64,000 nt of DNA from Raillietiella orientalis (Eukaryota): assembly GCA_036172245.1 (NCBI GenBank), contig JAYWIR010000016.1:3658001-3722000 (forward strand). Reading direction: 5' to 3'. Positions within the stretch are counted from its first letter, which is position 1. Each line of letters opens with the position of its first letter. Shown one piece after another: positions 11,501-64,000 of this stretch. The notes beneath the pieces were generated by a model, which searched no databases, was not told the origin of the DNA, and saw only the letters and a program-made list of their open reading frames with translations. The position numbers were made by a program, and so were the translations under genes.

Positions 11501-13337
11501 CTTTGGGGCTCTCTTCAGAGGAGTGAACAGGAGCGGTTCCCTTGCGGGCTCCCTCCGGAGAAGAAATTCCTACAAGAGGATCCTTTCCGGGTTCCCTTCG
11601 GAGAAGTTGAAATGGAGAGGACAGTCCCTCCCCATTAGAGGGGGTTGTCCCTCCGGAGAGAATGAGGAAGGAGATTCCCTTCGGGGTTCCCCTTCGGAGA
11701 CAACCAGGGTGGGAGGTGCGATCCCCACCGTCCGGGGGGGATCCCTTCCCAAGCGTGAGAGGAACGGACTCCGAGTCCTTCCTGGATTCAATAGGGCGGA
11801 CCCCCATCCCGGGGTGCCCCCTGTCCTGAAGAATTACACGCCCCCCTGCGGGTTGCCGCAGGCGGAGAGGTGTGGAAACAAAACCGTGTGTTTAATGTTT
11901 AAAAAGAGCCACGTGCGGCGCGAGGCACGCGACCGGCTCTTGAGGTTACGTAGGGAACCAAAAAAAATGGACAACACCTCAGTCGGCATTTCATTTTCGT
12001 AAGACTTAAGGAAACTTGGAAAGATCATATGTTGATCAAAATCCCTTTTTGCTGTCATTCCAAAATGAGTATTTAAGAGAAAATATTCAGAGTAGACTTT
12101 GATGGTTTCCTGGGCTGCATCTCTAATGCTTGCAATCACTTTAAAATCATTCTTCAATAGTGGAAGGTGCATATAGGTTTATCAACACTTGTGTTTTTCC
12201 TGCTGGCAGATTTGCTAGCATTAGAAGTAGAGTATTCATCAGATTATAGACAGTCTTCTCAGGTGCATTCTTATCCAAGCAGCTAGGTGGTTACCATGAA
12301 GGGAAAAAGTATTGCATGTCTAGATAGTTACTATCCTAATAGGATTGTGTTAATTTGTAAACGATGCTATGTGATGTGTTATACTTTGATTACATTCTCT
12401 TTTTTTTTGTTGTTGTTGTGGTTGTGTTATTCACAATGTGGTACATTGGTGAGTTGTGGATTCTGTATCCGACTTGGCATCTGCGGAATTCGTGTTAAAT
12501 TGAACATTGCATGCCAAATCGCTATTGTGCCCCATACCCTGGAAATGGAAACTCTTGTTTGTACTTTTCTTTTTGCAAAATTTCAAATTTTTCATGTATG
12601 CGGTTGACGTGTTTTGGTGGACACTAATGATATGGCAGTTAAAGAAGAAATGATTCTATTCATTTTTCAATCTGCGCCTTTTCATAGACTGTAGTTAATT
12701 GAAAACTGTTTTCCACAGTCCTTGGAGAATTGTGGACGACTGCGGAGGTGCCTTTACAATGGGTGCTATTGGTGGCGCAGTCTTCCAGAGCATTAAAGGA
12801 TTTAGGAATGCACCCAGCGTAAGCATTACTGTGTGAATTAAAATGTCATGTGTAGATGTTAGGGTGTAAACAGAAGATTACTGGGAAGCTTATCGGCAAT
12901 CCAGCATCGCTCACCAAGTATCGGAGGGAGTTTTGCCATGTGGGGAGGCATGTTTTCAACGATAGATTGCTCGCTGGTGTATTTCCGCAAAAAAGAAGAT
13001 CCCTGGAATTCCATTATTAGTGGAGCAGCGACAGGTGGCATATTAGCTGCTAGAAGTATGTTAATTTCCTAATCCTTTCTAATTACAAAATAACTCAACG
13101 GTGACTACTTTGTATTTAAATAGTTTAAAAACACAATTCTCATCGATGCTGCATTCTTTAGATGGACCTGCTGCAATTGCAGGCAGTGCTCTCATTGGAG
13201 GCGTCCTTCTTGCCCTAATTGAAGGAGTGGGAATTTTATTTACACGTCTTTCAGCAGAACAGTTCAGGCCTATGACACCACAGCTGGATGATACATCTTC
13301 AGGCCTTCCCCATCTTACTGGACAGCATTATCAGTAG
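8535..13337 (+). CDS. TIMM17: Mitochondrial import inner membrane translocase subunit Tim17 (4 coding exons, 164 aa)
   Basis: Exons 8535-8560, 12719-12818, 12863-13055, 13162-13337 join via GT-AG introns (4158, 44, 106 nt) into a 495-nt frame: [43 protein letters not shown]...[43 protein letters not shown]..., the canonical Tim17 sequence. Confidence 0.97.
11235..11967 (+). mobile_element. Retroposon (SINE-like) family copy 1, in Tim17 intron 1
   Basis: GC-rich insert in an AT-rich intron. 11563-11967 is nearly identical to 32009-32398 and ends at an A run. The 5' boundary is approximate. Confidence 0.8.
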
Positions 13338-29900: not shown

Positions 29901-32900
29901 CCAAGGCGAGCTGGAGCAGCTTCGACAAACCGGGACATTCGAGCCATCCCGGTCCTCCGGGCGCGCCGTAGGTTCCCGAGTGAGGGGGGTCCGTTTCGGG
30001 ATTCTGGGTCTGCACGGCCACATTCCTTGTCCCTCCCCCCCGTGCAAACTCTGCAGAGTTCTGCCTCGCCGCGATTTCGTCCATGGCGGTCACCCACGAC
30101 CCCCAGACCCAAGGCCGTGCGATAGAAGAACGGCTTGCTCGCAAGCGCTCCGCCATCATTCTATTACGCGCTCGGAAAGAAGTTTCCGGGCGGAGGCGCG
30201 TCCCCTCCGGAACGCTGCAAAAGGTGCTCCACGGAGAGTGAGCAAAGGGGTGGCGGGAGGATGGGATTCTACGATTCCATAGAGCACGAAAACAGAATGG
30301 ACGACGACCAGGGATGTACATACTCTGTTTCGTGTTCCGTAGAAGCGTAGTTGACAATACATAGAATAGTTATTAGGAAAGCTATTACTGGTCATAGTCA
30401 GTGTTAATCATATATATATATATATATATACACATGACTAACAGTGACTATAACTAATCATATCTATCTATCTATCTGTGTGTGTGATCATATATTAAAG
30501 CCTAGGGCGCCATTTAAAATGCCACACATTGCTGCTGCTCGCTACTCCTTGCTATTATGAACACGGAAGAACCATGGAGGAACCAAGGAGCGACTCGCAA
30601 TGCTTGGGAGAGCGAAATCCTCCAGGCATTCTCGGAAAGAATGCCTTGGGTTGCTACTATGTATGAATCTGGCAGCGCACCGGAAGCTGCTACACCGAAG
30701 CAGGAGGAAGAAAAGCGGGAAGAGCTGCTGTCACTGTTTTTTTCTTCTTCTTTTATCGACTTTCGAGCAGCGGTGCTTGGAGAGAGGTGTCGGCGACGGC
30801 GGTGGAACAGAGGACCGCAAGAGACGCTCCGGAGTCCAAATCCTTCAGCGACCAACGATATAGATAGAACCCGAGGCAACCCTTCCCCGTTGAGGACGGC
30901 GGCAAAAAGCCGCGATGAAATCCGCTAATGCCGTGCATTAATGCCTTGCATTGGATACGAACGGAACGTACGAGACCGAACGACAGGCAACTGGCTTGGA
31001 TCCCACGATTTCAGGGTCCCCTCTGAGCATCCAAAAGTTCTCTTTCAGGAGTGAGGATGCGCGTTCCGACCGATACACAGACACGCCCGCTCGGGGGGGG
31101 AGGGGAGGGGAAGAAGGCAGCTGCAAAAATTTACCGTTTTCGAAATAATAAGACGTCTCGTTGTATCTTTCGTCGCTGAAACCTGGTCTCTTCAGCTTCA
31201 CTGATTTGGCATTGTATTTGACCTGGAAGGAAGAGCAAAGAGATACACTGGTTGGCCACAGTTGCGTGGAGGCTGTTCCGGAGCGCAACAGCGTACATTG
31301 CAAGTCTCGCATACTGTACGGTGCTACTGTACGTAGCTAATCGCCGAGTACAAGCGAATCGGATTTCCGCGACCGCTGTGCTTTCCCGGAGACGTGGCGC
31401 GGATGCTTTCCGCTTAGCTTTCGTTGTTCTTCCGGCAGCTCCAATGCGCGCTTCCCAGCGTTTTCCCTCCAGTCCTGGATGCCGCTCCGAGCTGCACTTC
31501 CGGACGGGAACCAGCAGCGGGAGGGGAAGCCCCGCAGAAATGGAAAAGGCCTCTCTCTGGATGGAGGTGAAGATCACAGGAGAGTGGTACCGGACCTGCG
31601 CGCGCGCACACACACACAAAGAGAGCCTACAAAGACAAAATTCTTTTCCCGGGAGATTTTTCTTCTCGCCACCATTTGTTTCACCTGCCGGCGCACCTTC
31701 TCCACCGTTCGGAAATGAACTTTATTTACTACGCAGCAGTTCCTCTTCACGCTCCTACCGATGTGGCATCCTTTCGTGTGTGCAAATGCTTCATCTGCAA
31801 TTTGCTTCGGGGAGCAGTTCCAGGAAGTTTGACCTCGGATGGAGCAAGCGCGAAGACCGTCGTAGGGGGGAGCCCCGACGCGTCGAGATTCCTCATCACC
31901 CCTTTGGCTGGATGCTCTCCTTGCAGAGGGTATCCGACCGGAAACGGTTGCGGTTGCGAAAACGCCATGGGAGTGGCGCGGCAGCATCTGCATCCGAAAA
32001 GACAAGACGAAATTCCTACAAGCGGATCCTTTCCGGGTTCCCTTCGGAGAAGTTGAAATGGAGAGGACAGCCCTCCCCCATTACGGGGGGTGTCCCTCCG
32101 GAGAGAATGAGGAAGGAGATTCCCTTCGGAGACAACCAGGGTGGGAGGTGCGATCCCCACCGTCCGGTGGGGATCCCTCCCCAAGCGTGAGAGGAACGGA
32201 CTCCGAGCCCTTCCTGGATTCATAGGGCGGACCCCCATCCCGGGGTGCCCCCTATCCTGAAGAATTGCACGCCCCCTGCGGGTTGCCGCGGGCAGAGAGG
32301 CGTGGAAACAAAACCGTGTGTTTAATGTTTAAAAAGAGCCACGTGCGCCGCGAGGCACGCGACCGGCTGTTGAGGTTACGTAGCGAACCAAAAAAAAACT
32401 CTTGAAAAAAAAAAAAGCTGAAAGGAAAACAGCGAAGACAGAAGAAAAAAGAAAGAACCCAAGGATTTCCATCGTCCTAGGCCAATAGCAACGATCTCCT
32501 CGTGGGGGTCGCCACTGGCCTTATAAAAAAAAAAAAAAAAAGACAAGACGAGGTCAGTTCGTTGTTCTCGAAGACTCAAAGCTTTCCTGCACCAAAGCCG
32601 CCGCGCGTCAACTCCGACACTACCCCCGTACACGCCCTCGCAACTCTGGTCTCCTGCGTAGGTCACCTGAATCCCTCCCCTCCCCCCGGAGCAGTGGGTT
32701 GATCAGACAGCCGAGTGCGAACAGGAGGATACAACAACGTGCCTTCTTGCGGGGAACGCGCGCAGGCAGAGCGGCCTTCCGGCACGGGGCGAGACCGGAA
32801 GACCACGCGCACGGGTAGGCGCGTCGCCAGCGGCAACGCCGCGGACGAAAGAAGCAGAGACCGGATGAGGAAGGCGCGGAGAGGGGATCCAAGGAGACCC

Positions 32901-47000: not shown

Positions 47001-50000
47001 TCCAGATCTTCTGCAACTAACTTATAGGACAATGAATCATGCATAATGGTCAGTAATTAACATCATTAACACCATTTAACAATGAGCATTTCGATGACAT
47101 TTGAAACAACCTTGAAGAATAACAGGGATGCTAGAGACTTACATCAGAGAATTTCAAAAGCACATTAATTAATTGTATTCTCTAATCCAATTTCCGAACT
47201 CCACTTCATGTATTTTGAAGCAACTTTACTAGAATTCAAAATTTATTCTTCTGAAATAACTCTCTACATGAATATTTTTTGAATGAATGAATGAAAGGCA
47301 AAAAGGACTGCATCTATAAAACTCCCCTACACAAAAAATATGTACTGGCTTAGTGACATAATTATTTACACATAACCTACAATTAAGTACATTCACTATC
47401 AATCAGTGCAACTTCATAACCATAGCAGACAGTTTGCTTGCATCATGCATTCCAGCTTAAAAAAGTGGCTTAATTCAACAAAGTTGAAAAAATTTGGTTA
47501 CTTCAATTGGCACACTAATTTAAAAAACAATATCTTCAGCAAGAAGAACTTATTTCATAGCAAAACATTTCAATTATTAACACAGCATGCACACCTGATC
47601 TTGAATTAATACCTGCTATTCATTTCAAATTTTTCATACATGAAGCCACAACTTCAATGCTCATAACCATATCAATACGCTATAGTGCATGCAGTGCATT
47701 TAACTGTGCAATGCAGCAAATGAATGCCTGCATTTTTTCTACGAAAATCAATTTCAAAATCTCATTTTAAATACCTCATTTACACATAATACAGTTTACA
47801 CATAATGAAAATACTGTAGTTCACAAAACATGTAGTCCATTTAGTTAAACCTAAGTGATCAAAAAGGCACATGTATCTACAAATAACTACAGTCTGAATT
47901 CTTTGAAAAGTAAAAAGGTACAGAAAACTTCAGTCGAAAACTCATTTTCTCAGCAGTAAACAAAAACAAAAAAACCAAAGGAATATCATAAACGGAAAGT
48001 AACATAAAAATTATTGTCATTTTAACGAAAAACTCTCTTAAAAAATTGAAAACATGGCACCAAACTTGAAACTAGCACTTCTTCAAAACCTAATATTAGA
48101 ACTTAATTTGAAAAAATGCAAGGCTAAGCGATTCTACCACCACTACACATATAAAATTATGAGAACAATGTTTTTTTTTTATGCCTACACCTATCGAACT
48201 CCATTTGCAAAAAGTTCTATGATTACGAAAACGTACTAAATTTACAGATCTTTTTTCAGACACAGTTTTTATTTGAATGAGTCCTTTCCGATTACACAAC
48301 TTCAAACGGGGAAAAGTTTCAAATTTTGAATTACATACTTTTGAGTTGCAGACCTAACTTTACTTATTGATGTCTATTAATTCTTGAATCTTACGCTGTC
48401 TGGCTTACTTACACTTGTCTCTGTGTCAACATAAGTTAAGAGTGTGTCGTGTTTGAATTCATCTAGTGCAACATTTATCCCAACATTAGTCATATGGAAG
48501 CAATATTTGTATTCATCTAATTTAATCTGCAATAGAATCAATAAAATGCAACGAAAATTCTCTGAGTGCTTTCATACTTTTTGTAACAGAGAAATCTTAG
48601 CTTTTAATATTCTTAAAAACGTTTTCAAAGGATGTTTACATATTTGAAACACACTGATAAATGACATCAAACTACAGCTTCGAGTTCTAATAAATTCCTG
48701 AGAAGCAACATCAATACAGTATGGGTAACGTTACTCATTTAAAACATAAGTTTAAAACCGTTCCTCAGCACTGCGTGATAAAATTTACAAGAAGTACCAA
48801 CTTCGAGCTATATTTCGTATTTTGATAAAATTCATATTGTGCAAATATATAACAAATGATACAGCTTTTTCCCTAGGAAAACAAATCATTAGCACGTTGA
48901 ATTCATTTTCTGCGGGAATTCGTAGAACACATTTGAATTCCTTCACAAGGCTTCAAAAGAGCCTCAGCCATCGATACTTTCAGCTATAAACGACGAAATT
49001 AAAAATCAATGGAAACAGCGTAATTTTTTCAGTAGCGTCATTCACAAAAGTGATTTATGTAATCCTCTGTTGCGTAATTCTGTTTCAAATTCATGTCCTC
49101 GTCACATCAACTGCAAGTTCAATTACAAGTAGGTGACGTTTCCAGATTAAATGGCAATGATTACAGATGCAATTAGTTGTACTGATTTGCTGTTACATGT
49201 ATTCAACAAATCGCATGAGTTCCTAGACTTATTGGTTTTATCAGTGACTTCAAAAGATGATTTTTCTAGTCAGTTCCCTTTTTGGAAGCATTAGACTGCA
49301 AAACGAGCCCAACTTAGAGAATCAGTTTTACACACGAAAACACTTAGTCGAAAACACAGATAAAAGATATTTTGAAAGAATTATCAGTGCATTATTTAGT
49401 TCCCAACAGTGATTCCTGAAAAACTAAACAAGGTTATACATATCTGGCAATGACAGAAACTTCTTACTTTGAATAATCGGCTTATTGTTTAAGCGCAGAA
49501 AGTGTATGCGAGAACTTGCTTCCTTCTACCTCACCAATGATTGTCCATTCGTTATTATAGTTCATAATGATTCCATGAGCTCATTTTCCTGATTTTATTA
49601 ATTTTAAGAAGAATAGAAACAGTAGAGAAGCGGAAAAGTCATTCCAAATAAGATTGCTTCGAATTTTGATTCATTGGTGTGCTCGGGTAAACAAGTATTT
49701 CTCCCAAAATGATCAACTGAAGTAATTAATTTAATCGTGATTTGTCTTATAAGAAAAGAAATGGTAAAATCAGAAAGTGGATTCCCAGAGCACATCACAT
49801 TCATATTGAACTACTACTTTTGTTTCTCGGACGTTATAATGCAGAGCATATTCAATAACAATTTTCTTTTCATTCCCACATGAATAATGTGAGAATTTAT
49901 ATACACAAAAATCATTGCATCCTCTTAATTCCAGGCACAAAAGTGTCATTCTTCTGATTACTTCTGCTTATTTTTCTACTGCTATTTCAAAGATTTTCTT

Positions 50001-50861
50001 TAAATGAAATAACTTTGTTTAGTACTTTTCTCGCACTAGTTTTGCTGTTATTCAACCCAACACTTTTTCCCACCCTTCGAAGAGTTCTGATTTTGATATA
50101 CGATTATATTTATCATAATATAAATACAATAATTTATTGAATCACTACCACGATTCAATATATGAGCACTTATTGCAATCAAATATTTTTTCACTCTATT
50201 ATTTATTGAAGAATGGAATTTATTTTTTTTACTCTTCATTTATAAAAAATTTTTTTTTTTTTCAGTTCTGATTTTAGTTAAGAATTTACGAATTTTGATT
50301 GTGAAAAGCTGCCACGAATTTTGATTTCATTACAATCACAATATAAGTAATAACCGAATAATCTATCCCATTTGGATGTTGTACATTTTAATTTCCAAAG
50401 GAAAAAAATAACCTGAAATCCAATTCATAGATCAAGAGACATTTGTTTCTCTAAACCGGATTTATCTTGATATTCTTAAAATGACATCTTTGAGTCTACA
50501 TAGTTACTTAGGTTTTTTATTTCTCCAGATACATGAGTTTTAGCAGAAATTCTTGCATTCACAGTTTAAACTATCAGATGCAATATTGTAATACATAATG
50601 CCAGACTGGAGTCGGTACCTACTGCTTGTTCGCGATTTTCGAAAACTCGTCCGTGTATGTGCAGAAATTTGAAGTTCAGCTTCATTATGGTTTGAATTTA
50701 ATGTTCATCTTTTATATTTTAATAAGTTTTGGTATTGTGGACATAATAACTATATGCAATTTAGTGATATGTAATGTGAATGGAGACTGTTTTATAGTCT
50801 GAATACCACCATATTAGTTTATGTAATCATTTGCATACAAGAGGGTGCAAATTCTTGAAAA

Positions 50862-53800
50862 ATGAAAACCAATAAGAGTTCTGGAGAATTTGTTGAATTA
50901 CTACAAGCTGCCGAACAGCTTACTGCCGAAATGGACCAAAGTGGAGACTTACCCAGGGTGGAAAGAAACCTGAAGCAAATTCTTGATGCTGGGCAGCAGT
51001 TGTGGTCTAGAACAGCACAGACCGGAACTCAGGATGTGAAGGCGTACGAATTTATTGTTAACGCATAACTCAATTATGAATTTTTTTGTTGCTAGGAAGC
51101 AATGTTTTACGCAAATTTAATCATTAGAATGCAATCCATTATATCTTTATCACCAGTGTGCCCCTTCAGTTGCTTTCAGTATTAAAAATCATATACTAAT
51201 TGTTTGTTTCTGCTAGGTCGATCTTGTTGGGTTCAAAAGGATTCGATCTCCCATCAATTTCACAGAAGCTCGAATCTTTAAGCAGTGCAAAGTCATTTGA
51301 ACCTATTAAACCTGTGCGTGATTGGGATATACAAGGATTTTTAAAAAATGAAAGAGAAAATGCCATTCTTTCTATAATTGAAGAGATCAAGACATCTGTG
51401 AGGACCTTTGGTTATTTATTGTTGTTGCTTATTGTGTGTACTTCAGACTTATGAATATGTGGAACGAAAATTTTCCGAAAGCATGAGAACTCAGTGGGAG
51501 CAAGAAAAGCAGAAAATATTGTCATCATTAGGAGCATTAAGTAAAGATGGATTTGATCTGGGTAACACCATTGTAAGTATGTGCAGCTAGCTTTCAACAG
51601 TTTCAATTCTTTTAGGAGCAAACTGTTGATACTAGTTCTTTAATAGTAAGTAGTTCAACAGTATTGAATAGTTTGGAGTTGGCATTCATGAAAGAAGTTT
51701 GTCATTATAATCAGCAAACTCTTCATGGGGGTATTCGTCCAAAACTTACTCAGCGCTTTGCCGAAGTAGCCAAAGAATCTGGTGACCAGGTAACAAGTCA
51801 GCAAACAGAATTACTCCATTAAGGATTCTTAGAATATTGCAGAGTTGTGGGAATTGGTACGGTGTCTGGGTGATGTAGTTTTTCTTGGAATGGGAGATGC
51901 AGCAACAGCTCGACAGAGTACAGCAGGAATATCCTCTTTGCTTGATCATACTAGAAAGTATTTGGAACAATGGTGAGTTCAACTAGGAAATGAATTCTGT
52001 AGCCTTCTTGATAGTTTCATGAGACATATGCAAAATACAGTGGCCAACAGGTTACAGCACACATCTCTTGGAGGTGTTCCCGGAACCTTTCATTTAGTTA
52101 GAGCCTACTTGCAGCTAAAACTAAATGCTAGTTCAATGTATGAAGATGGATGTGTGCAAGGACAACCAGTGTGGCCCATGATTTATTGTTGTTTGCGTTG
52201 TGGAGATATTGCTGCAGCATCACAAGTAGTGGAGGCAGCAGGGTAATGAGTCATCATTTCTTCAGATTCAGCATTCCTTTTCATAGGCCAGCATTGGCGC
52301 AGTTTCAACCTTTCATTCAAGAGTTGGCTCATAATGCCAGTAGGAAACTGAGCCCTACTTCTGAAGCTTTCGTACAGTTACAGTATCGGCGTTCCATTCG
52401 CCGTTGTAGTGATCTTTATAAAAGGTCTGAAGCATGAAATTCCATAAGAGTTGGAAATTTGAACTAGGACATATCCAGATTAGTTTATTGTGTTTTGGGG
52501 TCCTGTGATCCTTCAGATGACCATTCAGAAATTGCTACTCGCACTGAGGACTATTTATGGCTTAAGCTCTGCCAGCTGCATGCTGACATTCCAACAGATT
52601 CTTGCCCATCGGATAAATTAACATATACAGGTTTCCAGACGTTAATTTTAGAAGAATATGGTGAGAGCACTATCCACTAGTTGGAGAATAACAGTTTCAC
52701 TTATTTTCGTATGTAGGAGAAACCCACTTTCAAGCTTACCAGCACCCTTTAGTATATGCTAGTGTCTTGTTATTGACAGGCCAGTTTGAAGCTGCATTGG
52801 AATTCATGTCAAGAATTTCACACTTGCGTGTCCATGCAGTACACATAGCTTTGGCCTTTAATGAGCAAGGCCTTTTAGCAGTAACTGATAATGTGCAGCA
52901 GCCTCTTTGTAAGTAATAAGAGATCTCATGAATCATTTGCCCTGTATAGTATCAAAATACTCATCTGGTCAGCCACCATTTCGTCGACTAAATTTAGTAC
53001 GGTTATTGCTACTGTATACTCGCCAGTTTGAGGCTGCTGAGCCCCAGAGGGCTTTGCAGTATTTCTGGTTCTTAAAGGATCTCTCAGATGGACAAGGAAA
53101 TTCTCTCTTTGAGAACTGTGCAGTAGAATTGGTTCTAGAATCACGTGAATTCCAGATTTTGTTGGGACACTTAGAACCTGATGGTTGTCGCATACCTGGC
53201 TGCATTGATCAGTTTCAAGTGAGCACTCCACTAAGTTTGAAGATCAGAAATGTTGTTTTGCAGCTGGATGTTCCCAAAATTATTGGCATGGTGGCTCAAA
53301 AATCAGAAAACCAAGGATTGCTAGAGGATGCTGCAAAGCTGTATGACTTGGCAAAGGTATGGTGAAAGCATTCAACATATTTATTGTGTGCTTCACACAT
53401 AGAACCATGATAAAGTATTCGAGCTACTTATTAAGTTGCTCAGTCAAGTTGCTGCTCAGCTTCCAGCATCTGAATCAACCAGAGATCGGCTGCATAAGTA
53501 TGCATGTGAAGTAGGAGAAAGATACAAAAACTTTGGTCATTCCGGAACAGCCAAAATAGCAGCTACATTTTACTTGCTGCTGGATGTGATGACATTTTTC
53601 GAGTTGTATCACTTGAAAAAACTGGATGAAGCCTTAAATGTAAGTCTCTCAGTTATGCAGAATATACATTTCTTAAAGGTTATGTCACAATTGAAATTGG
53701 TTCCTTTACACCAACAAGATTTGGAACAGTATGTGGAGGAATTCAAGGATTTCTCTGAGGACATACGCTGCCTCATTCCATATTTGCTTTTGTCTGTGAT

Positions 53801-54108
53801 GAACATTATATATTCAAAATACCAAGCTACCAAGTAAGTGTGCTGCTCTCCATTCTAGTTTCCATTAAAGTGTTGCAGGAGCAATGTGCTACCCACCAGC
53901 ACTGCAAGAGGTAGAAGAATTCAGGATGGAGGCCAAGAAAAAGTAAGCACGCTCAGAAAAAATAATTTATATTTAATGAGAACTTTAGTATAGAGAAGAT
54001 TTGCGTGCCCAAGCTTCCTGCTTGATTACTTATGCTGGCATGATTCCATATCGATTACCAGGGGACACTACCGCACAACTTATACAAACTGAAGTTCTAA
54101 TGCGCTAA
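50862..54108 (+). CDS. NUP93: Nuclear pore complex protein Nup93 (15 exons, 826 aa)
   Basis: Exons 50862-51043, 51217-51397, 51447-51572, 51616-51789, 51833-51972, 52015-52242, 52287-52424, 52479-52660, 52717-52908, 52950-53218, 53264-53356, 53403-53639, 53679-53833, 53879-53942, 53989-54108 (2481 nt). Motifs: [82 protein letters not shown]. Confidence 0.97.
53972..53977 (-). promoter_or_regulatory. Candidate poly(A) signal of ARL2BP
   Basis: ATTAAA on the minus strand ~130 nt past the ARL2BP stop, inside the last Nup93 intron. Confidence 0.45.
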
Positions 54109-54109
54109 T

Positions 54110-54963
54110 TCATTGTTGTGGTTGCAGTGATGTTATATGAAGTTGACTCAGGAGACTATCATATTGCCCATTCTGAACCTATGAAAAGAGAAGTATATGA
54201 TGATGTAAATACTTCTCTACCGCTTTTTGCTCCAGCATAAGTTCCTTAAATTTGAGAAAATCCGTAAGAGTATCTAACATCTCGAAAATATCCCCTTCCA
54301 AATGGGATCCCCGTTTGCTAAAATAAATATTTGTGAAATACAAACACCATTCCATCTTAAATATATTCTTACATTAATTGCTGCATAAATTCCTCAATTT
54401 GGAAACCTGGTATTCGTTTGCACAATTCATCTGTCAGATATTGTTCTAGCATGTTAGTCTACAAAGATATGAGAAAATCGTAAATGTATGTACTCACGTA
54501 TTGTGCAAACAATTCCATGTATTCTTGTTTGTTTTCTTCGGCATGATCGAACTTTTGGCAGTGTTCTATCAAGAACTGCTGTTGAAGATTCCAGAAACTC
54601 GATTCTGGTAAATGTCAGAATATATCACTCCACATGATTTCTCACCTATTACGATGTCTTCGATGCGACCAATAACAGTATCAAATTCATCGGCTTCGGC
54701 TTCAACATCGATTGAGCTGTCACTGTCACTGTGGGAAAGGTCACACCCTGGAAATATAAAATTACGATAGCATCGACATAAGAAACTTCAAGTTTGCAAG
54801 CACACCAAGGCCTTTTAATATTTATCTGTAAGACGGTTTTATTATCACTTATATTTCGAACACAGATTGCACGCTGCATAAGCTTTTCGTTGAATATTGT
54901 TGTAACACATTGCAATTACAATATGAAATTAAGAAATACAAACTAACTATCATTTCCCGTCAT
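54110..54963 (-). CDS. ARL2BP: ADP-ribosylation factor-like 2 binding protein (BART), ~158 aa, 6 coding exons
   Basis: Exons 5'->3': 54963-54948 (tentative start, MTGND), 54747-54646, 54604-54498, 54458-54373, 54317-54221, 54178-54110; 477 nt. The product EFDTVIGRIEDIVIESSFWNLQQQF..FDHAEENKQEYMELFAQY..LEQYL..RIPGF..EGDIFEMLDTLTDFLKFKELML matches the BART domain pattern. Missed by the ORF track because all exons are short. Confidence 0.93.
54322..54327 (+). promoter_or_regulatory. Candidate poly(A) signal of Nup93
   Basis: First AATAAA after the Nup93 stop; it lies antisense within the 3' end of ARL2BP intron 54318-54372. Confidence 0.55.
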
Positions 54964-56773
54964 ATCAATTTCCTATTTTTAAAAGTTTGGGATGGACAGC
55001 ACTTTTGAAAACCAGAAAAGTAAAAATCAATAACAGTGGTACCAACAGATGACAATAATGAAACCTACTTAATAGAACGGATTTTGGAATTCCTCCTTAC
55101 CTACTATATCCTATAATTGCACAGCAAGATATAGTAGGCAAGGCCATATCTTATTATGCAGTTATTGACTAGTAGCAGAAATAAATCCAAAGAATTCAGT
55201 CAATCCATTGCTCAATTAATAATAATAATTCATATGAATACAGGTTATAATTGGCTACATGTTTTTGATATATGGATTCGGAAAAACGCATGTTGCTGAG
55301 AATCAAAATTAGTGGATCCAAACCACATATGTCAATGTAAGAAGGTAGATACTGTGTTAGAAAAAAGATTCAAAATACAAGTTGCGTTGAAAAAATTAAG
55401 GAAAAAATTCATAATTCAGGAAAAGTTCGAATTACTATTTCTTGCTGGGTTCACGCAAATAATAGTCTATGGATTAAATTATTTCACAAATTTTAACACA
55501 TAAAGGTTTAATTTTTCAAACAAATGAAAGTGACAATTAGAACTTGAAATTAATGAAGGTCTGGATTCAGAGTCAAAACACAATGGAACATGATGAAATC
55601 AGGAAAGGAAAGAAGCTTCAAACTGTATTGGTGTTCAAAACTGAACACTGGAAAGTCATCTATAATGCACGCAATAATTAAAAGAACCGTTACCCATTCG
55701 AGTAGATCAACATGAGTTTTCTGGATTAATGAACGACGAAGAGCAACCATGCATGATTATGCTAAAATGGAAAGAGAAATTGTCCCGAGATTGGAGGAGT
55801 CTCTTGATAATCATACTATACCAAAGATCCTGATGAAATATGATTTCCCTAATGAGTCTCTGAAAGATTAATATAACTTTCATACTTCTGGATGAAATCG
55901 AACTTTTTTTAATCTTAGAAGATGAAGGTTTTCGATAGCAAATTCATGAAAATGATCTGTTACCATTAATTAATTGATTACCAAACAAGAACAGCTTTTC
56001 TTTATAATTATCCCGAAGCATATAGAAAATTTGGAAACTATGTAAGAATAAATCTAGGCATTAATACATAAGCAGAGTTGAACGTAGCATTTAGGTGGTA
56101 TTGTATATAGGCTCTTAGACACAACTAACAAAAAATCGAAGTCAGTCGACGTTGCTGAAAATTCGAGATCAAGGTTGAACTAACTTTCTATATTCTATAT
56201 CAGAAAACAGCCTTATATGAAATATTTGCAGAGATTTTCAACTATCTTTCATGTTTTTTTTTTTCTCTTTTAAATCCACATTCGCAAAGACAGTTGAGCA
56301 CATTGCACGCAATCTTTGGTTGTTATTTCAAATTGTAGGTCAATGTCTCGATTAGGTTGTCGCCGGTTAACTTTATTATGTGTCGTTGAGTTTTGTTGCG
56401 AGCTTTCAGAGATTCTGGTGATGACTACAATTTTAAAATTTGAAAATGTACCCATCCATCGAAATTTTTTAAGGGAAAACTTGATCATGCTCTGAGAACT
56501 ATCATTTCATAGAGGTGTAGTTGAAAATGTTAAAGGAAGCGGAAATTTACATAGCTGAATTTTAAGGTAAAAAATGTAATTAACAGCATTTTTGAGCATT
56601 ACATTCATTGGTGTTAAGCGCATGTAGTACGACTACAAGAGTTTTGTAATGTCATGAAGTATGCCTCTGTAACAGTTAGGTTTAAGTGGATTGATCTCTT
56701 ATAAACATCTGATTGTTTCATGTGCACAGTACAAATTTCCAGGAATTTTTTGGACCCACTACTTGACAGGCAA

Positions 56774-58754
56774 ATGGAGAATGAACATCGTCCATATAAG
56801 GCAACAGAAATGGTTTGTAATTTTGATTCATTGTCTGGGAATTCTTTTATCAAACATAATAAATAGAGAATCATTCATAAATGTAGCAACAATAATAATC
56901 AGAATTTTCTTCTTAAAATAAAAAAAAATATCACACTTCAATGTTTTCAGTGGATGTCAATGATCAAAGCTTTCAGAACAGGAATTCCCCAGAGAACTCA
57001 CAGATTTCATATGCGACACTATGAGAATTGCTTTTCTGGAAAAGAAGCTGTTCAGTGGCTCCATACATGGTTAAAACATAATTCAGCTTTTGGAAAGGAT
57101 ATAACAAGGAATCAAACAGTTTTATTACTTAGAAAACTGCTTAAAGCTGGTGTGCTGGAAGAAGTAACTAGGAAAAAAGGAAAAGCCATGAGGGAATTCA
57201 GAGAAAATGGGATGTTGTACAGGTAGAAGGCTTTTCCATGTTCTGTTTCACTACTGGCAAACATATTTTGATTTCTAAAATGGACCTTGAAATGAAGCTT
57301 TTCAGGATTTCAAAAAATATCCCCCAAAATGTGATTCCAACCTCCAGATATAATCCTCCTTCTGTGAAATCTGATTATTCGTCTGTCAAGGCTGATGATA
57401 ATAGAGTGGACTACAATGCAAGTGATGAATCAAAACCAAAAAATTTCAGTTTTTTCAAGTCTGATTCAGAAAACTTTTTAAAAGAAAGAATTCTGGAAAG
57501 GTAGATCAGGACTGCACATCTGAATGCAGTGACAATTACAGTCTACTCCAGACTTAAGAAGCTACTCCCATGTGATAGAGAATTTGCTCAATGGAACTTG
57601 GAATGCATAAGTAATGAACAAATCACGTCCAACATGACATCCCAACATTTTGATTCATGTCAGGAAGTTCCCAGCTGGCTGCGAGCAGCCATGCAATGTT
57701 TGATTTTGTGTAAGATCGCTAATGAGCAATAAATGTAAAGCTTGCATCAGGGCCTGCTGCAGGAGAGGGGCTTCCAGCCTATTCTGGTTTTGAAATGGAC
57801 GTGCTTAAGACAGTACTTCAGTTTTTCCAAAGTCTCCCAAGCCCAATACTTCCTGAAAATATGATGCCAGCCTTCGTAACTGCCATCTCACAACTGGAAG
57901 CATGTGACTGTCTAGATTCCAGGTTGTACCTTGCAAGATTGGATCAAGGAAGTTGGGATTTTCTCTTAGAAAAGAAATTATGAAGCAGACCACAGGCAAA
58001 GCAATTAACCATTTGTCAGAACAAACAGGCTTACTATCACCAAGCAAAGATATAAAGCAGCAAGATTTTTCCACCAATCCCATAGTTTGGGGAAGGTAGT
58101 CTAGCAAGAATCTTATAATGAATGACTTGGAAACAATGCTCTTTACAAAGTGCCTGCCAGAAGTGCAAGCCTGTGTGTCATGTCAGTGATGTTGTGGAAA
58201 GTTTACAGCTGTTATGCTTGCTTCTTCCCCTTCAGAATCGTCTGTTGCTTAGAATGTTGTTGCGGATGATGGTTGCTGTGAGCACCAATTTACAGTTAAG
58301 ACTGAGCAGCAATGTGACAAATAAGTCAAAGGTAACTTGTAGAGTGCAGTTTCATTTGAAAACATTGAGTTTAGTTGATTGAAGATCTCCAAGATTGTAT
58401 TTTGCCATCTCAATCAGTGGAACCACTGATGGCAAGTAAAATCATCTCATCACTCATGGCCCAGAATGAATTAATATTTCTTGCACCCTCATGGTTATTG
58501 AACATGATGGAATGCCCTCCACAATTTGCTCAACAGATCTCTGTCCAGCAGTATGAGAAACAGAAAAAAAAATATAGCCATGGAGCTCTCCTACATTTGC
58601 TGGATGCAATACTTGCAGATAAGAATATCTCTGGTGCCAAAAAGCAGAGTCAACTTCGATTGGTTCGTACCAGTTTTGCTGTTTTGTCAGTATCTGTTCT
58701 TAGTTTCAGAAAGCTCATCCTGCTGTCTATAATCTGAAATTCAGTCAGTCATAA
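56774..58754 (+). CDS. DEPDC1: DEP domain-containing protein 1-like (DEP + RhoGAP-like), 9 exons, 493 aa
   Basis: Exons 56774-56812, 56951-57222, 57306-57500, 57552-57709, 57751-57922, 57970-58095, 58151-58331, 58375-58662, 58704-58754 (1482 nt). Motifs: PYKATEMW, YENCFSGKEAVQWL..FGKDITRNQTVLLL (DEP), PSWLRAAMQCL..WP..YSGFEMDV, LQLLCLLLPLQNR, FQKAHPAVY. The specific paralog (DEPDC1/1B) cannot be assigned. Confidence 0.9.
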
Positions 58755-58915: not shown

Positions 58916-61409
58916 GTGTGTGTAAATATATGTGTATGACCTCACTGCAAATGTAATGGGATGTGCATTTGTTTCAAGCAAAATAGTCTGTCAGTTAAAA
59001 AAGGCAGAAAGTGCTCCATTCCATCATGAGCTATTTGTTGGTTCTGCATACACCAAACCCTTGATGTGTAAGGGTGTGAAGTTGTGTGATGTATTGTAAA
59101 CCCAGCTGTTATGCAAAAAGAGACATACACCAAGATACTGAAGTTCCCTTGCCATGCTAGAACCTCCAGAACATTTTAGAGCTTCTGGCAATAACTGATT
59201 TCCGAGCATGCCCACCCTAGAATGGCAGAGCCATTCTCATCTTCCTTGCTAACGGATATTCCATCAAATCAAAGATAGGAATAACAGTTTTTCAAGAAAT
59301 CCGCCTTGTGAAACCTAACAGACGCACGACTTTCACTGCACTTCTAAGCACTGATTTGGGATTTTATTACCTATCGTCACAGGGGTTAAAGAAAAATGGA
59401 GTTTAGAAATCAAAGCAGAGTACTACGAATAAAACGCAAGGACAAAAATTTCTCTCACCATCCATAAGAAAAGCCATTGAATTGATCGAAGGATCTTTCA
59501 CAACAATATTCTTAAAGTAAAGCCACTTTATGCCAAAGACTGCTAAGCAAAACCATGGGAGAGGCGTCTCGTCTTCGGATAGAACGCTTGCCGTGGTTAC
59601 TCGTCGCTTCTGCAATTTGTAATCTTTATGCCCCTCGCATGTAATATCACAAAAAGCGGCCTAAGAATAGTCTTATCAGTACTACCGGGCAAAAACTGTA
59701 CCAATAGCACAGTACAGTAAAATGAGGGCGGTTGAAAACCGGAGCCGATCCTTTTTTCTTCCAGGAGAAATGATTTGAGATTTGCAGATTGAGGGCATCC
59801 ACTCCTTCACTTTCAGTTCGAACGTTCACCTCGTAAAGGAAACGAAATCTTTGCCCGGTACATTTCGGTTGTAAAGCTTATTACAGCAACATTACTCTTC
59901 CTTAAAATCCAGGCATTTATGGAAAATAGCGCGTGTGCTCTGCCACGCTAACTTTAACTTAACGAAACAGAAGGCGTTGTGCCGATTTATGCGAGCTCAG
60001 TCCACATCCTTCTTCCTGGAGCACAGAAAAGAAGTAAACATACAGATTATTTTCAGGAACAAAGTGGACTGGTCCACGGACGAATCAGTGCATGCATACT
60101 TCTGCTCCACAGACCAAACAAAACTATCGTTTTAGCTGCTATTGAAGAAAACTTTCGAAAAGTGTTGGAAAATTTTCACCAGCCCCAACGGCTTGTCGTT
60201 GGGCGAAAGTGAGGTTTTGGTAGAGTTCACCTCCTGAAACTTTTAAAAGTCCCGAAAATCGAGCACCTTGAAGCAAGTTTGTTGCTAAAGATCATTGAGG
60301 TAAGGTTTTGAAAAGTCAGATTTTAGCTGAAAGCAGCAATAGGATTCAGAGTTATCAGACATTGCAAACATTCCGTTCTTTTTTTTTTTTTCTCTCCAGG
60401 GGCTGGCCACTGAATCTTTGCTAAACCGGGGAATTTTTTATTTCTCCCTTTGTCTGTCATTTCTTTCTTCGCTTCCTTGAGATTCAAATACATATCTTAG
60501 TAAAAATAACAAGTGACCGTCACTCAGTGGAAGAAATGATTTTTTTCTGGAATTCACCCCGAGAATTCACCATCCTCTTGAAAAATTTCATGGATTTTTT
60601 TTTTTTTTCTTTCTCTCAAAGGCATCGATGATTCTCAGTTGAGTACACGCTGAAGCTCCAGAAAGCAAATGCAGTGTCGAATTCACCTTTCTGATGATGA
60701 GCTCCACCTTATTCTGGAAAATTTTCAGGTGCATGCTCACATGTGACTCGTCAGTCTATCTAACTTCCAAAAAAGCAGAAAAGTTTGCAATGCCCGTTAA
60801 CAAGCGCTTCGGAAGAATTCGGACACTGATCCCATTTCTGAATATTTGGGGGAGACATTGATCCTGATTTCCGTTTCAGCATAAAAGTCCCTCCAAACAT
60901 TTTCATGAGCACGGAGGAGACATTCTGAAGTCCGCAGCCTCATAAATAGTGTTGTTTCAAAGAAAAGTGTGTATCTTGAGAAAAAAATGCAATATCCTTA
61001 CACATATCTTGGGAAAATTATTTCAAAGACCTGAGACAACGGAGCAGCAATAGACAATGGAGCTCTCTAAACGGGACTGTGACCGTATCGAAGACTATCC
61101 ACAATGAACAGCAAAGAATATCCGTCTCTAAAGAAAAAGGATCAGTGGACTCCATCAGCACAGCACGACAAAAAACATGACGCCGTTTCAGACAACAAAT
61201 GAAGTCTGTGCTCCCAAGTCTGTGCTGGAGTCAGAAAGTGACCCATAATATCGTGAGAAGAAAGGACTGCCTCCGGGTACCTTTCCTTCCTCCTCCCCTC
61301 CCATCAAAATCGTCCGGACTCGGGAAGCTTTCACATTCTCTCCGCTGCGGCTTCTCGGACCGAAATGATCAGCAAGAGAGCACGAATGCTAGGTGGGTGA
61401 GACGTTTTT

Positions 61410-61936
61410 GGAGAATGAGTGCGAAGTACTTCGAGAACGAGGAGGCGATGCCCGCGAGGTCTCGCGACTCCTCGCCGGAAGCGGCCCTGCCAAAGCCCGA
61501 TAACCCCTCGTGCATCGACGGATCGCTTCCATGCGAGTCACAACCCGTCGGGATGGATACACTACAGCCGCCTCCTGAACAGGAGGCGGAAATCACAACG
61601 CCATCAACATAAATACATCCATGCGTGGACTCTCCTCTCGCCGGCGGTTTGCGCATAATCTGTTGGAACGTCGTCGGGTTGCGCGACGTCGGCAAGAGGA
61701 GAGAAGTGGCCGCCAGCTTGCGGGACTTCGATCTGGCTCTTCTGCAAGAGGCAGACACACGTGCTCAACGCAGAAGAGGCCCAGGAAATCGAAAGGATCA
61801 CAGGTGGGCGGCTAACATACGAAATCGGGGAAGACCGCACCCGCGATGTGGCTTTCTTGCTGAAGCCAGCCGTCGCTACTGCGCTGCGCGACGTGCACTT
61901 CGACCCTCGACGTTGTCACCCGGTCACGCCGGGGCG
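61410..61936 (+). mobile_element. Non-LTR retrotransposon remnant: probable ORF1 end plus the N-terminus of the APE endonuclease
   Basis: LRIICWNVVGLRDVGKRREV..DFDLALLQE (from 61625) is the WNVxGL..LQE signature of LINE endonucleases. A frameshift follows the QE motif. A Pro/Ser-rich ORF stops at 61612, just upstream. Confidence 0.8.
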
Positions 61937-62850
61937 TTTATTATAAACTGACAACCATTGCAGTATAAGGCCCCGCCGCGGACAACACAGCAAGGGGCCT
62001 GCCGGGTCGTCGGTGCGCAGACCCACCTGACTCTCCACGGCAGTGAAGGGGAATGGGGAGAAAACAAAAAGAAAAATAATGCAAAATTAGAAAAACAATA
62101 GTTCTCTGGAGGGTCGGGAAGGGCTCACTGTCCGCTTGGTGGAGGTTCCATCCTTTGCAGGATGCCAACGAGGTCCTTCTGCCTGTTTCCCAGGTGGGGC
62201 CATCGGGTTGCTATTCGCAAGAAGCAAGCTGCATACTCGATGACGTCCCTATCGTTTGCATCTTCTACTGCGTCGGATCCACTCCAGGCCCCCCACAATA
62301 CCGCAGATGCAGCTGAGCGCTGCCAAGGCTGCGGCTGGCTGCAGGACGTCCCTCACGAAGAGGAGCCGAAAAACGTCTCTGGGAGGGCTGCCCACCGGGA
62401 TCCCGAGGGTCGTCCCGAAACATTCCCAAAGGGGCCGAAGGGCAGGACAGTCAACTATCAGGTGGGGAGGGACTTACTGCCCACTGGGAGGAGGGCCCAT
62501 CCTTCGCAGGATGCCCTCGAGGTCCGTCTGCATCTGCCCCAGTTGGGGCCATCCGGCAGCTCTCCGCATGAACAGCATACTGGATGACGTCCGTCACGTT
62601 GCAATCTTCATCTTCGGCATCACTCCAGGCCGCCACAATACCAAGGATGCAGCAAAGTGCTGCCAAGGCTGCGGCTGGGCTGAGGGCGTCGCGCACGAAG
62701 AGAAGACTGTGAACGTCTCTGGGGTTGCCACCAGCCGGTATACCGAGGGCCGTTCCAAGCCGATCCCAAAGAATCCGGAGGGCTGGGAGGTGGGGGAGGG
62801 ACTCCCCCTCCCCACACCTGGCACACTCAGGGTTTACTCTTACTCAGGGT
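61937..62850 (-). mobile_element. Two tandem antisense LINE ORF2 C-terminal fragments plus 3' UTR
   Basis: The minus strand reads NPECARCGEGESLPHLPALRILWDRLG.., then PHLIVDCPALRPLWECFG.. (split CCHC zinc-finger pattern). These are followed by a T-rich UTR, a GGCC hairpin and AATAAA (61942-61937). The two fragments are diverged direct repeats about 344 bp apart. Confidence 0.72.
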
Positions 62851-64000
62851 CCAGTGGAAGTGGCGCGCGTTGCAGGGTAGACCTCAATGCAGCCACAGAA
62901 GCCAGACAGCCTGAGACCCCTGCTCTTCAGCAGCTACTTTCAGTTGGTGCTGAGAGCATACAGGGACACTCTGGCAATTCTGCTGAGCTCGTGTCCCGGC
63001 ACACATGCCGTGTCGGTTTACGCCGACGACCTTTTACTCCTGCTCCCCGGCTCTACCCCGGCATTGGCACTCGAAGAATTCTTTGAGCTGCTGCTCCGCG
63101 GAACGGACCTCGAGGAGAACAGAGAAAAATCAACGATTGTTCCGACATCACCATTACTATCTTCAAATACGGCGTGGGCCGGACTGGATCCGCTTGGGGA
63201 TCCTCACGGGCAGGTGCTCCAAGTATCTTGGCGTTCCGTTGGGGACTTCTGCGTTGTAGAAGCCTGGTCTGACCGTCTTCAAAAGGTGGAGTTGGCGATC
63301 GGTCCGTTCCGGAACAGGAAGTTTTACTTTCAGGAACGGGCCGCGGTGTGGAACGTGTTTTCGCGGCCCTCCTCCTTCTCCCCTTACTTTTTGTTTGCTT
63401 CGCCCCACCTTTCATAAAGAGATGGACCGAAGCCCTCTTAAGGACTGTCCTTTGGGGCACAGCGAGGTCCCGAGTCCGCTTAAAAGACTTGTGCGCTCCA
63501 CGCAGGGACGGTGGTTTGGGCCTCCTGACGATAAAGCGCATGGAACGACAACTCGACTTCAGGAAGTGCTTATGGATGACGGCTTGGTGAGAACCTTCAC
63601 GTCTTCTCTCCAGCAGAGCGACCGGCTGCCAAGGCTTGGCATCGCTAATGGAGGAGTCCGTCTTCTGCCCACACTGCTGCGCGCTGTCGCTCAAGGACCC
63701 GCCGACGTTCCCGGAGGGATGAGCGAGAGTACCGAAGGTACCCACTTAACACGCTCGCAGCTCGCGAACGCAGCATCAACAACTGTGGCCGTGACCTACT
63801 CCAGATGGTTGCCCTGGTGAGGAAGCATACCTGGATCTCCTGACTTCCCGCGAACTGCACTTCCTGGCTTCAGAAATCAGTTTTCGCGTGGGTCAAGATC
63901 AACGACTCGAGCGATGCAGAGTGCAGCTGCCTCCGTCGAGGTCCCAACGCTCGACAGCCCCTGCAGGAGATAATCAACAACCTGCGGAAGTTTCTGTGGG
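62851..64000 (+). mobile_element. Decayed L1/Tx1-like reverse transcriptase region (frameshifted, runs off the window)
   Basis: PLRPLLF, VSVYADDLLL, NREKS, KYLGVPL, LWG and LCAPRRDGGLGL occur in order across shifting frames. Confidence 0.88.

Follow-up and report, generated by a model that had tools for sequence, protein, structure and literature searches.

The window analysed here, i.e., the whole stretch of 64,000 nucleotides from Raillietiella orientalis, embeds two intact protein-coding genes, Nup93 and ARL2BP, which lie on opposite strands and face each other with their stop codons 1 bp apart (Table 1). The Pfam Nic96 domain matches three segments of the predicted Nup93 protein (E 1e-30, 2e-20, and 3e-5), which is 46-48% identical to five animal Nup93 proteins that are themselves 56-84% identical to each other; it thus represents a long branch. 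Its last exon aligns without gaps up to the final residue in all five full-length homologues (a sixth is a fragment), the stop falls at the identical residue in 80 of the 80 Nup93 loci found in metagenome contigs, and, when related loci are clustered by lineage, 29 of 47 clusters have an AG immediately before this exon. An acceptor-like word is also present at 54114-54128 on the plus strand, about 20 nt past the Nup93 stop; a transcript spliced from the last donor to this word would lack the conserved C-terminus, and there is no support for such splicing.

Table 1. Features of the Nup93-ARL2BP locus, of other genes in the window and of the related loci with convergent Nup93 and ARL2BP genes.
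Feature	Position	Strand	Details
TIM17	8535-13337	+	stop 13335-13337
RPUSD-type pseudouridine synthase	~14400-13406	-	stop 13408-13406
Nup93 coding region	50862..54108	+	open model, 15 exons, 826 aa, no internal stop
Nup93 last intron	53943..53988	+	46 nt, 74% A+T; minus strand carries candidate ARL2BP 3'-end signals
Candidate distal ARL2BP signals	53966..53989	-	ACTAAA 53989, ATTAAA 53977-53972, AATATA 53973, TATAAA 53971, then U-runs
Nup93 last exon	53989..54108	+	TAA 54106-54108; ends at conserved C-terminal residue
GU-rich stretch	54065..54089	-	possible proximal downstream element, post hoc; opposite strand is Nup93 coding
Single base between stops	54109 (T)	.	on the minus strand, last A of AATGAA
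Candidate proximal ARL2BP signal AATGAA	54114..54109	-	spans own stop; CA at 54091-54090, 19 nt later
ARL2BP coding region	54963..54110	-	6 exons, 160 aa; first exon 54963-54948 tentative
ARL2BP last exon	54178..54110	-	22 codons + TGA 54112-54110
ARL2BP last intron	54179..54220	-	42 nt, 71% A+T; position and phase as in L044, L052, L061
ARL2BP penultimate exon	54221..54317	-	BART domain end; PF11527 E 2e-6; PDB human ARL2BP E 2.5e-4
ARL2BP penultimate intron	54318..54372	-	55 nt, 78% A+T, the maximum among the 29 introns
Candidate Nup93 poly(A) signal AATAAA	54322..54327	+	214 nt past stop; predicted cleavage ~54340-54355
DEPDC1/7-like gene	56774-58754	+	DEP domain E 2e-17, weak RhoGAP; predicted stop 58752-58754, AATAAA 58910
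Convergent Nup93-ARL2BP	L044:4381-6949		gap 616 bp; ARL2BP last exon 55 aa
Convergent Nup93-ARL2BP	L052:1681-5987		gap 2906 bp; ARL2BP last exon 105 aa
Convergent Nup93-ARL2BP	L061:1582-2623		gap 171 bp; ARL2BP last exon 49 aa

As regards the opposite strand, the Pfam BART domain matches two segments of the ARL2BP model, and the PDB matches of the BART segment are human ARL2BP chains only; the match to PF11527 together with a tail motif of the ARL2BP type assigns the gene to ARL2BP as opposed to other BART-domain proteins. The last exon is less conserved than that of Nup93, sharing 18-27% identity with the last exons of three relatives; nevertheless, it ranks second among the 4514 open frames of the window that start after an AG (z 3.8), according to a score built from the three relatives alone. 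Moreover, a profile made from the four last exons, in which the relatives outweigh the exon of the window itself, matches only human ARL2BP residues 133-150 among 177,635 PDB sequences (E 0.0025). The exon retains the conserved tail motif, without the long low-complexity extension found in the relatives. Other candidate last exons scored far lower (two short frames, with acceptors at 54155 and 54146, were too short to be scored), and a transcript that retained the last intron would meet a stop codon near 54179 and would lack the conserved motif. Concerning database searches, the representative protein search returned three matches, none of which includes the last exon: two were fragments of ARL2BP exons, and the third was an unrelated repeat protein; a protein search with the frame of the ARL2BP penultimate exon gave no match among 10 candidates, an exact search of metagenome contigs with a 31-base junction pattern gave none, and neither did Rfam over positions 50000-57000.

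The possibility that the arrangement is an artefact, due to an incorrect last exon, to a defunct ARL2BP gene, or to an assembly join at which the spacer disappeared, might be raised by the use of a single assembly and by the fact that no protein of the species itself was found in the protein searches. We consider it very unlikely. Indeed, neither frame is interrupted, the introns have GT-AG boundaries and conserved positions, and no other local acceptor scored gives as good a last exon for ARL2BP; a mis-join is an unlikely source of the pair because the same neighbours occur in three other lineages. The 1-bp gap between the two stops is therefore supported at both ends by homology, as far as the sequence can tell, and the coordinates given to both stops by the first-pass annotation were right. 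Since both stops are supported in this way, the further claim of that annotation, namely that any 3' UTR of either gene must be antisense to the coding sequence of its partner, holds for every 3' UTR longer than 1 nt.

The same annotation had placed the candidate poly(A) signal of each gene in an intron of the other one. Its positions for the first plus-strand AATAAA (54322-54327) and the first minus-strand ATTAAA (53977-53972) are correct, and for Nup93 the location of the signal in the ARL2BP penultimate intron is well supported by the sequence: no second hexamer that differs from AATAAA by one base or less is present in the interval 54085-54330 of the plus strand. This AATAAA occupies positions -10 to -5 of the acceptor of the ARL2BP penultimate intron, and the plus strand of the intron offers room for the hexamer, the cleavage zone, and a U-rich sequence. 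It is hardly conceivable that both mRNAs end near their own stops by means of non-canonical signals (Nup93 at the CA at 54111-54112), with hardly any overlap. Although a GU-rich run follows the Nup93 stop immediately on the plus strand, upstream of it just words with two mismatches occur (54081-54107), none lying within one mismatch of AATAAA, and a perfect AATAAA is available at 54322.

The ARL2BP side is less clear. The 3'-end signal of this gene is ambiguous because AATGAA spans its stop, and the ATTAAA, which is indeed the first canonical hexamer of the minus strand, is preceded by other candidates, i.e., AATGAA at 54114-54109, AATCAA at 54027, and ACTAAA at 53989. Four candidate hexamers are clustered inside or at the edge of the Nup93 last intron, where the ATTAAA occupies positions -17 to -12 of the acceptor. 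The positions of the two hexamers relative to the acceptors fit the suggestion of the first-pass annotation that the same bases might serve splicing on one strand and 3'-end formation on the other. Such a dual use is at most putative, given that pyrimidine tracts are weak in many short introns of this genome, and the branch motif YTRAY was found in just 4 of 24 short introns, a scarcity that leaves TTTAAT unsupported as a general branch point.

The composition of the introns was compared within a set of 29, taken from five genes of the window. Of these, 24 measure 60 nt or less; the first intron of TIM17 (4 kb) and a DEPDC intron whose model is unresolved were left out. The three introns lying inside the predicted overlap are the three richest in A+T of the 24 short ones (0.78, 0.74, and 0.71, against a mean of 0.63 and a maximum of 0.69 for the comparison introns), and they rank first, third, and fifth among all 29. 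The exact p of 4.9e-4 for the ranking among short introns is post hoc, the grouping having been drawn after the ranks were known, and the test is partly circular, as the limits of the overlap were set by hexamers which themselves favour AT-rich introns. The nearest Nup93 intron beyond the overlap has one of the lowest A+T contents (0.58), Nup93 introns 2-13 exhibit no 5'-3' gradient in A+T (rho -0.05), and the last introns of DEPDC and RPUSD have values of 0.62 and 0.61; the 106-nt last intron of TIM17 is AT-rich too (0.72). No enrichment in A+T at third codon positions was detected inside the overlap (p 0.73 and 0.61).

As for the hexamers, 2 of the 22 remaining short introns also contain A[AT]TAAA in antisense, whereas within the last 20 nt it is carried by none of the 24 except the two candidate introns. 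When the letters of each candidate intron were shuffled, a hexamer appeared in 10% and 45% of the shuffles; thus, the hexamer signal mostly reflects the AT-richness of the introns. The density of hexamers over the whole locus gives a chance of 0.32 of meeting one within 214 nt and of 0.22 within 133 nt. An antisense hexamer is also present at the homologous acceptor in one of the three relatives (L052), though there it lies 4.3 kb from the Nup93 stop. Overall, the high A+T content of the overlap introns fits the idea that they might double as 3'-end sequence.

The ambiguity of the ARL2BP signal leaves room for an asymmetric arrangement, in which Nup93 would end in the ARL2BP intron while ARL2BP would be cut about 20 nt past its own stop, near 54090, by means of AATGAA and a GU-rich element. 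In this case, only 88 + 97 bp would be left for pairing, and the Nup93 intron would contribute, with its ATTAAA, at most a distal site. We regard this arrangement as possible, albeit rather improbable. AATGAA is followed by a CA 19 nt on and, right behind it, by a GU-rich run, and the last base of AATGAA is provided by the 1-bp spacer. On the plus strand, the C+A content of the 33 nt at 54061-54093 (0.67) exceeds that of all 47 related lineages (maximum 0.64) and that of 97.5% of Nup93 coding windows, with the limits of this interval being chosen post hoc. In C. elegans, no variant signal is more frequent than AAUGAA, which is attributed to 11% of genes (PMC6886508), and the RPUSD gene of the same window has ATTAAA across its stop as well. 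However, the asymmetric arrangement would leave unexplained both the AT-richness of the Nup93 last intron and the clustering of four minus-strand hexamers in it. In addition, the changes near the end of Nup93, which affect three of eight invariant columns, are not clearly above the rate of this lineage (84 of 310 invariant columns altered over the whole protein); the idea that the C-terminal residues of Nup93 were altered to serve an antisense signal was rejected on the same counts.

A comparison of the stop-to-stop distance in related genomes, which the first-pass annotation had proposed, proved informative. ARL2BP is convergent with Nup93 in 3 of the 80 Nup93 loci, most of which are too short or are transcripts, and in these three lineages (L044, L052, and L061) the two genes are adjacent and have the same orientation as in the window, with much wider gaps (Table 1). 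The last two ARL2BP introns lie at matching positions in all four lineages, the spacers of the three relatives contain candidate hexamers, and the four lineages are not close kin, since their Nup93 last exons are 59-72% identical in DNA. According to these sequence comparisons, the pair is inherited as convergent neighbours, separated by larger spacers in the three other lineages. Of the lineage clusters that bear introns and extend at least 1.5 kb downstream, 3 of 17 display the convergence, as do 2 of the 10 that extend at least 3 kb; in these counts, short contigs may hide ARL2BP. The linkage of the two genes is not evident in the titles and abstract openings of the literature naming both of them. 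In human, NUP93 and ARL2BP presumably share one chromosome band without being adjacent.

The persistence of the linkage might suggest a selected regulatory device, in which the pairing of the two co-expressed mRNAs would lead to endo-siRNAs or masking, or polymerase collision would damp ARL2BP wherever Nup93 is active, and for the sake of which the two genes would have been kept together. In agreement with this, convergence is maintained in four lineages with 28-41% divergence between their Nup93 last exons, the complementarity could reach 287 bp, and in L061 only about 30 nt separate the Nup93 stop from the first ATTAAA of the minus strand, so that the 3' ends may already overlap there. Convergent 3' overlaps are also the dominant class of fly cis-NAT siRNA loci, according to the sections of PMC4079977 relevant to this point. 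Nevertheless, we deem such a device unlikely: the gaps of 616 and 2906 bp in L044 and L052 require no overlap, the pair was found in few of the lineage clusters with sufficient downstream sequence (a proportion that short contigs may lower), and no functional link between the Nup93 and ARL2BP proteins was found in the literature, as judged by titles and abstract openings. Moreover, the same sections of the fly study indicate that co-expressed cis-NATs often yield no siRNA and that, at every expression level, 3' cis-NAT pairs without siRNAs are at least as numerous as those with them.

Based on the whole of these data, we suggest that Nup93 and ARL2BP are inherited neighbours whose spacer was lost, that their mRNAs end at signals located in the AT-rich introns of the partner, and that the overlap is a tolerated by-product; we consider this explanation, taken as a whole, somewhat more probable than not to be correct. 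In the ancestral state, the two genes would have been convergent, with a spacer holding both 3' UTRs. The spacer and most of the variable C-terminal tail of ARL2BP would then have been lost, possibly by deletion, until the coding ends met. The end state is what is seen today in the gene structures, the stops, the linkage, and the composition, with a gap of 1 bp and an ARL2BP last exon of 22 aa. The sole non-coding room remaining for 3'-end signals would have been represented by the short introns of the partner, which, to judge from their composition, became AT-rich. The Nup93 mRNA is expected to run 230-245 nt past its stop and to be cut inside the ARL2BP penultimate intron, whereas that of ARL2BP would run about 150-165 nt past its own stop and be cut in or at the Nup93 last intron. 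A UTR of similar length can be predicted for the DEPDC-like gene, which has an AATAAA 156 nt past its predicted stop. On geometrical grounds, the mature mRNAs could pair over 190 + 97 bp, and their signal-bearing ends should be unpaired because each of them lies in an intron that is spliced out of the partner. The overlap would represent a by-product of tight gene packing and presumably not a selected switch. This does not mean that it is free of cost: overlaps touching coding sequence are under-represented in five metazoans, according to the part of PMC2330155 on which we draw, which argues against calling the overlap cost-free.

Most likely, then, Nup93/ARL2BP represents an extreme case, as far as spacing is concerned, of the known convergent 3' cis-antisense pairs, generated as a by-product of spacer loss. 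The comparison with known systems is based on selected parts of the papers cited. The geometry is that of the 3'-cis-NAT loci of Drosophila (PMC4079977, PMC7144943), such as AGO2/CG7739 and r2d2/cdc14 (PMC4079977), which share with our pair the convergence of protein-coding genes and the 3' overlap of transcripts that is predicted here for any UTR longer than 1 nt. However, the fly loci involve mostly UTR/UTR overlaps and are defined by the observed 21-nt reads (PMC4079977), whereas the pair described here has no room for a UTR/UTR overlap and would set each UTR against coding exons and introns. The convergent CDS/UTR clusters of Metazoa surveyed by Solda et al. 2008 (PMC2330155) are similar to the arrangement predicted here in their antiparallel partial overlap, which includes the coding sequence of the partner; in that survey, the overlaps are mostly species-specific and often derive from new terminal non-coding exons, unlike Nup93/ARL2BP, where the neighbourhood is old and the overlap probably arose via the loss of the spacer. 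As in the conserved pairs termed CAMPs (Irimia et al. 2012, PMC3514665), unrelated neighbours are kept adjacent and in equal orientation across lineages, although most CAMPs are head-to-head, in contrast to the convergent pair studied here.

The THRA/NR1D1 locus (PMC4569393) is also an ancient convergent pair in which an antisense overlap was gained in one lineage, with the involvement of splice and poly(A) elements. In that case, a novel exon subject to alternative splicing gave rise to the overlap, which was examined with minigenes and 3' RACE (PMC4569393); the source suggested for Nup93/ARL2BP is the loss of the spacer, and the pair has been described at the DNA level. Finally, in microsporidia (PMC4654818, citing Williams et al. 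2005) transcripts end inside neighbouring genes at many loci. These are unicellular parasites with few introns (PMC4654818), whereas Nup93 and ARL2BP belong to an intron-rich gene island of an animal, in a window that is largely GC-rich and non-genic-looking. Taken together, convergent 3' overlap is known as a class, and what is new is the inheritance of the Nup93-ARL2BP pair. Neither this pair nor poly(A) signals in the intron of a convergent partner, as a named class, emerged from the literature searches, as judged mostly by titles and abstract openings.

Other parts of the window provide some context for tight packing. At positions 1-48000 and 61000-64000, long GC-rich stretches (50-64% GC) alternate with small AT-rich islands (30-42% GC) in which the genes lie, and the end of the window resembles, by eye, the remains of retroelements. 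TIM17 and the RPUSD-type pseudouridine synthase gene form a second tight convergent pair, with 68 bp between their stops. The ATTAAA across the RPUSD stop lies at 13410-13405 and is followed by an AATAAA at 13346-13341, while no canonical hexamer was found for TIM17 in the 420 nt past its stop. In the model of TIM17, the first intron (8561-12718) spans 4.2 kb, about 100 times the typical intron length here; it contains AT-rich stretches, which might represent a nested gene, and a GC-rich insert at about 11250-11950 that resembles sequence near 31750-32300. The DEPDC1/7-like gene, whose model has one unresolved intron, is head-to-head with ARL2BP across about 1.8 kb; a minus-strand gene facing it was searched for and not found.

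One might speculate that, throughout this animal, the terminator space between housekeeping genes has been removed, that convergent gaps have approached zero, and that 3'-end signals have moved into the tiny introns of the partner, which would bear a recognizable signature of AT-richness and antisense hexamers; this idea is based here on a single locus, whose composition signal is post hoc, plus one pair with a 68-bp gap, and we hold it to be a doubtful generalization. A single locus as such matters little, given how frequent convergent overlaps are in animals: in the fly, about 26% of the genes are involved in an overlap of some kind (PMC2330155, Table 1), and close convergent poly(A) sites have been reported in zebrafish (PMC3460199), to cite the portions of these works that bear on the issue. 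The value of the Nup93-ARL2BP pair lies in the natural before/after comparison that it offers, with a spacer of 171-2906 bp in three lineages and of 1 bp here. The pair shows what is given up, i.e., the spacer and a variable tail of the protein, and suggests a destination for the 3'-end signals, i.e., the introns of the partner. The intron-composition signature provides a cheap genome-wide test, given the genome and 3'-end reads. If the idea proved to be true, an intron-rich animal genome would use its introns as a standard container for the poly(A) sites of neighbouring genes, and inherited pairs such as Nup93-ARL2BP, which are spaced in other animals, would allow the order of the steps to be traced.
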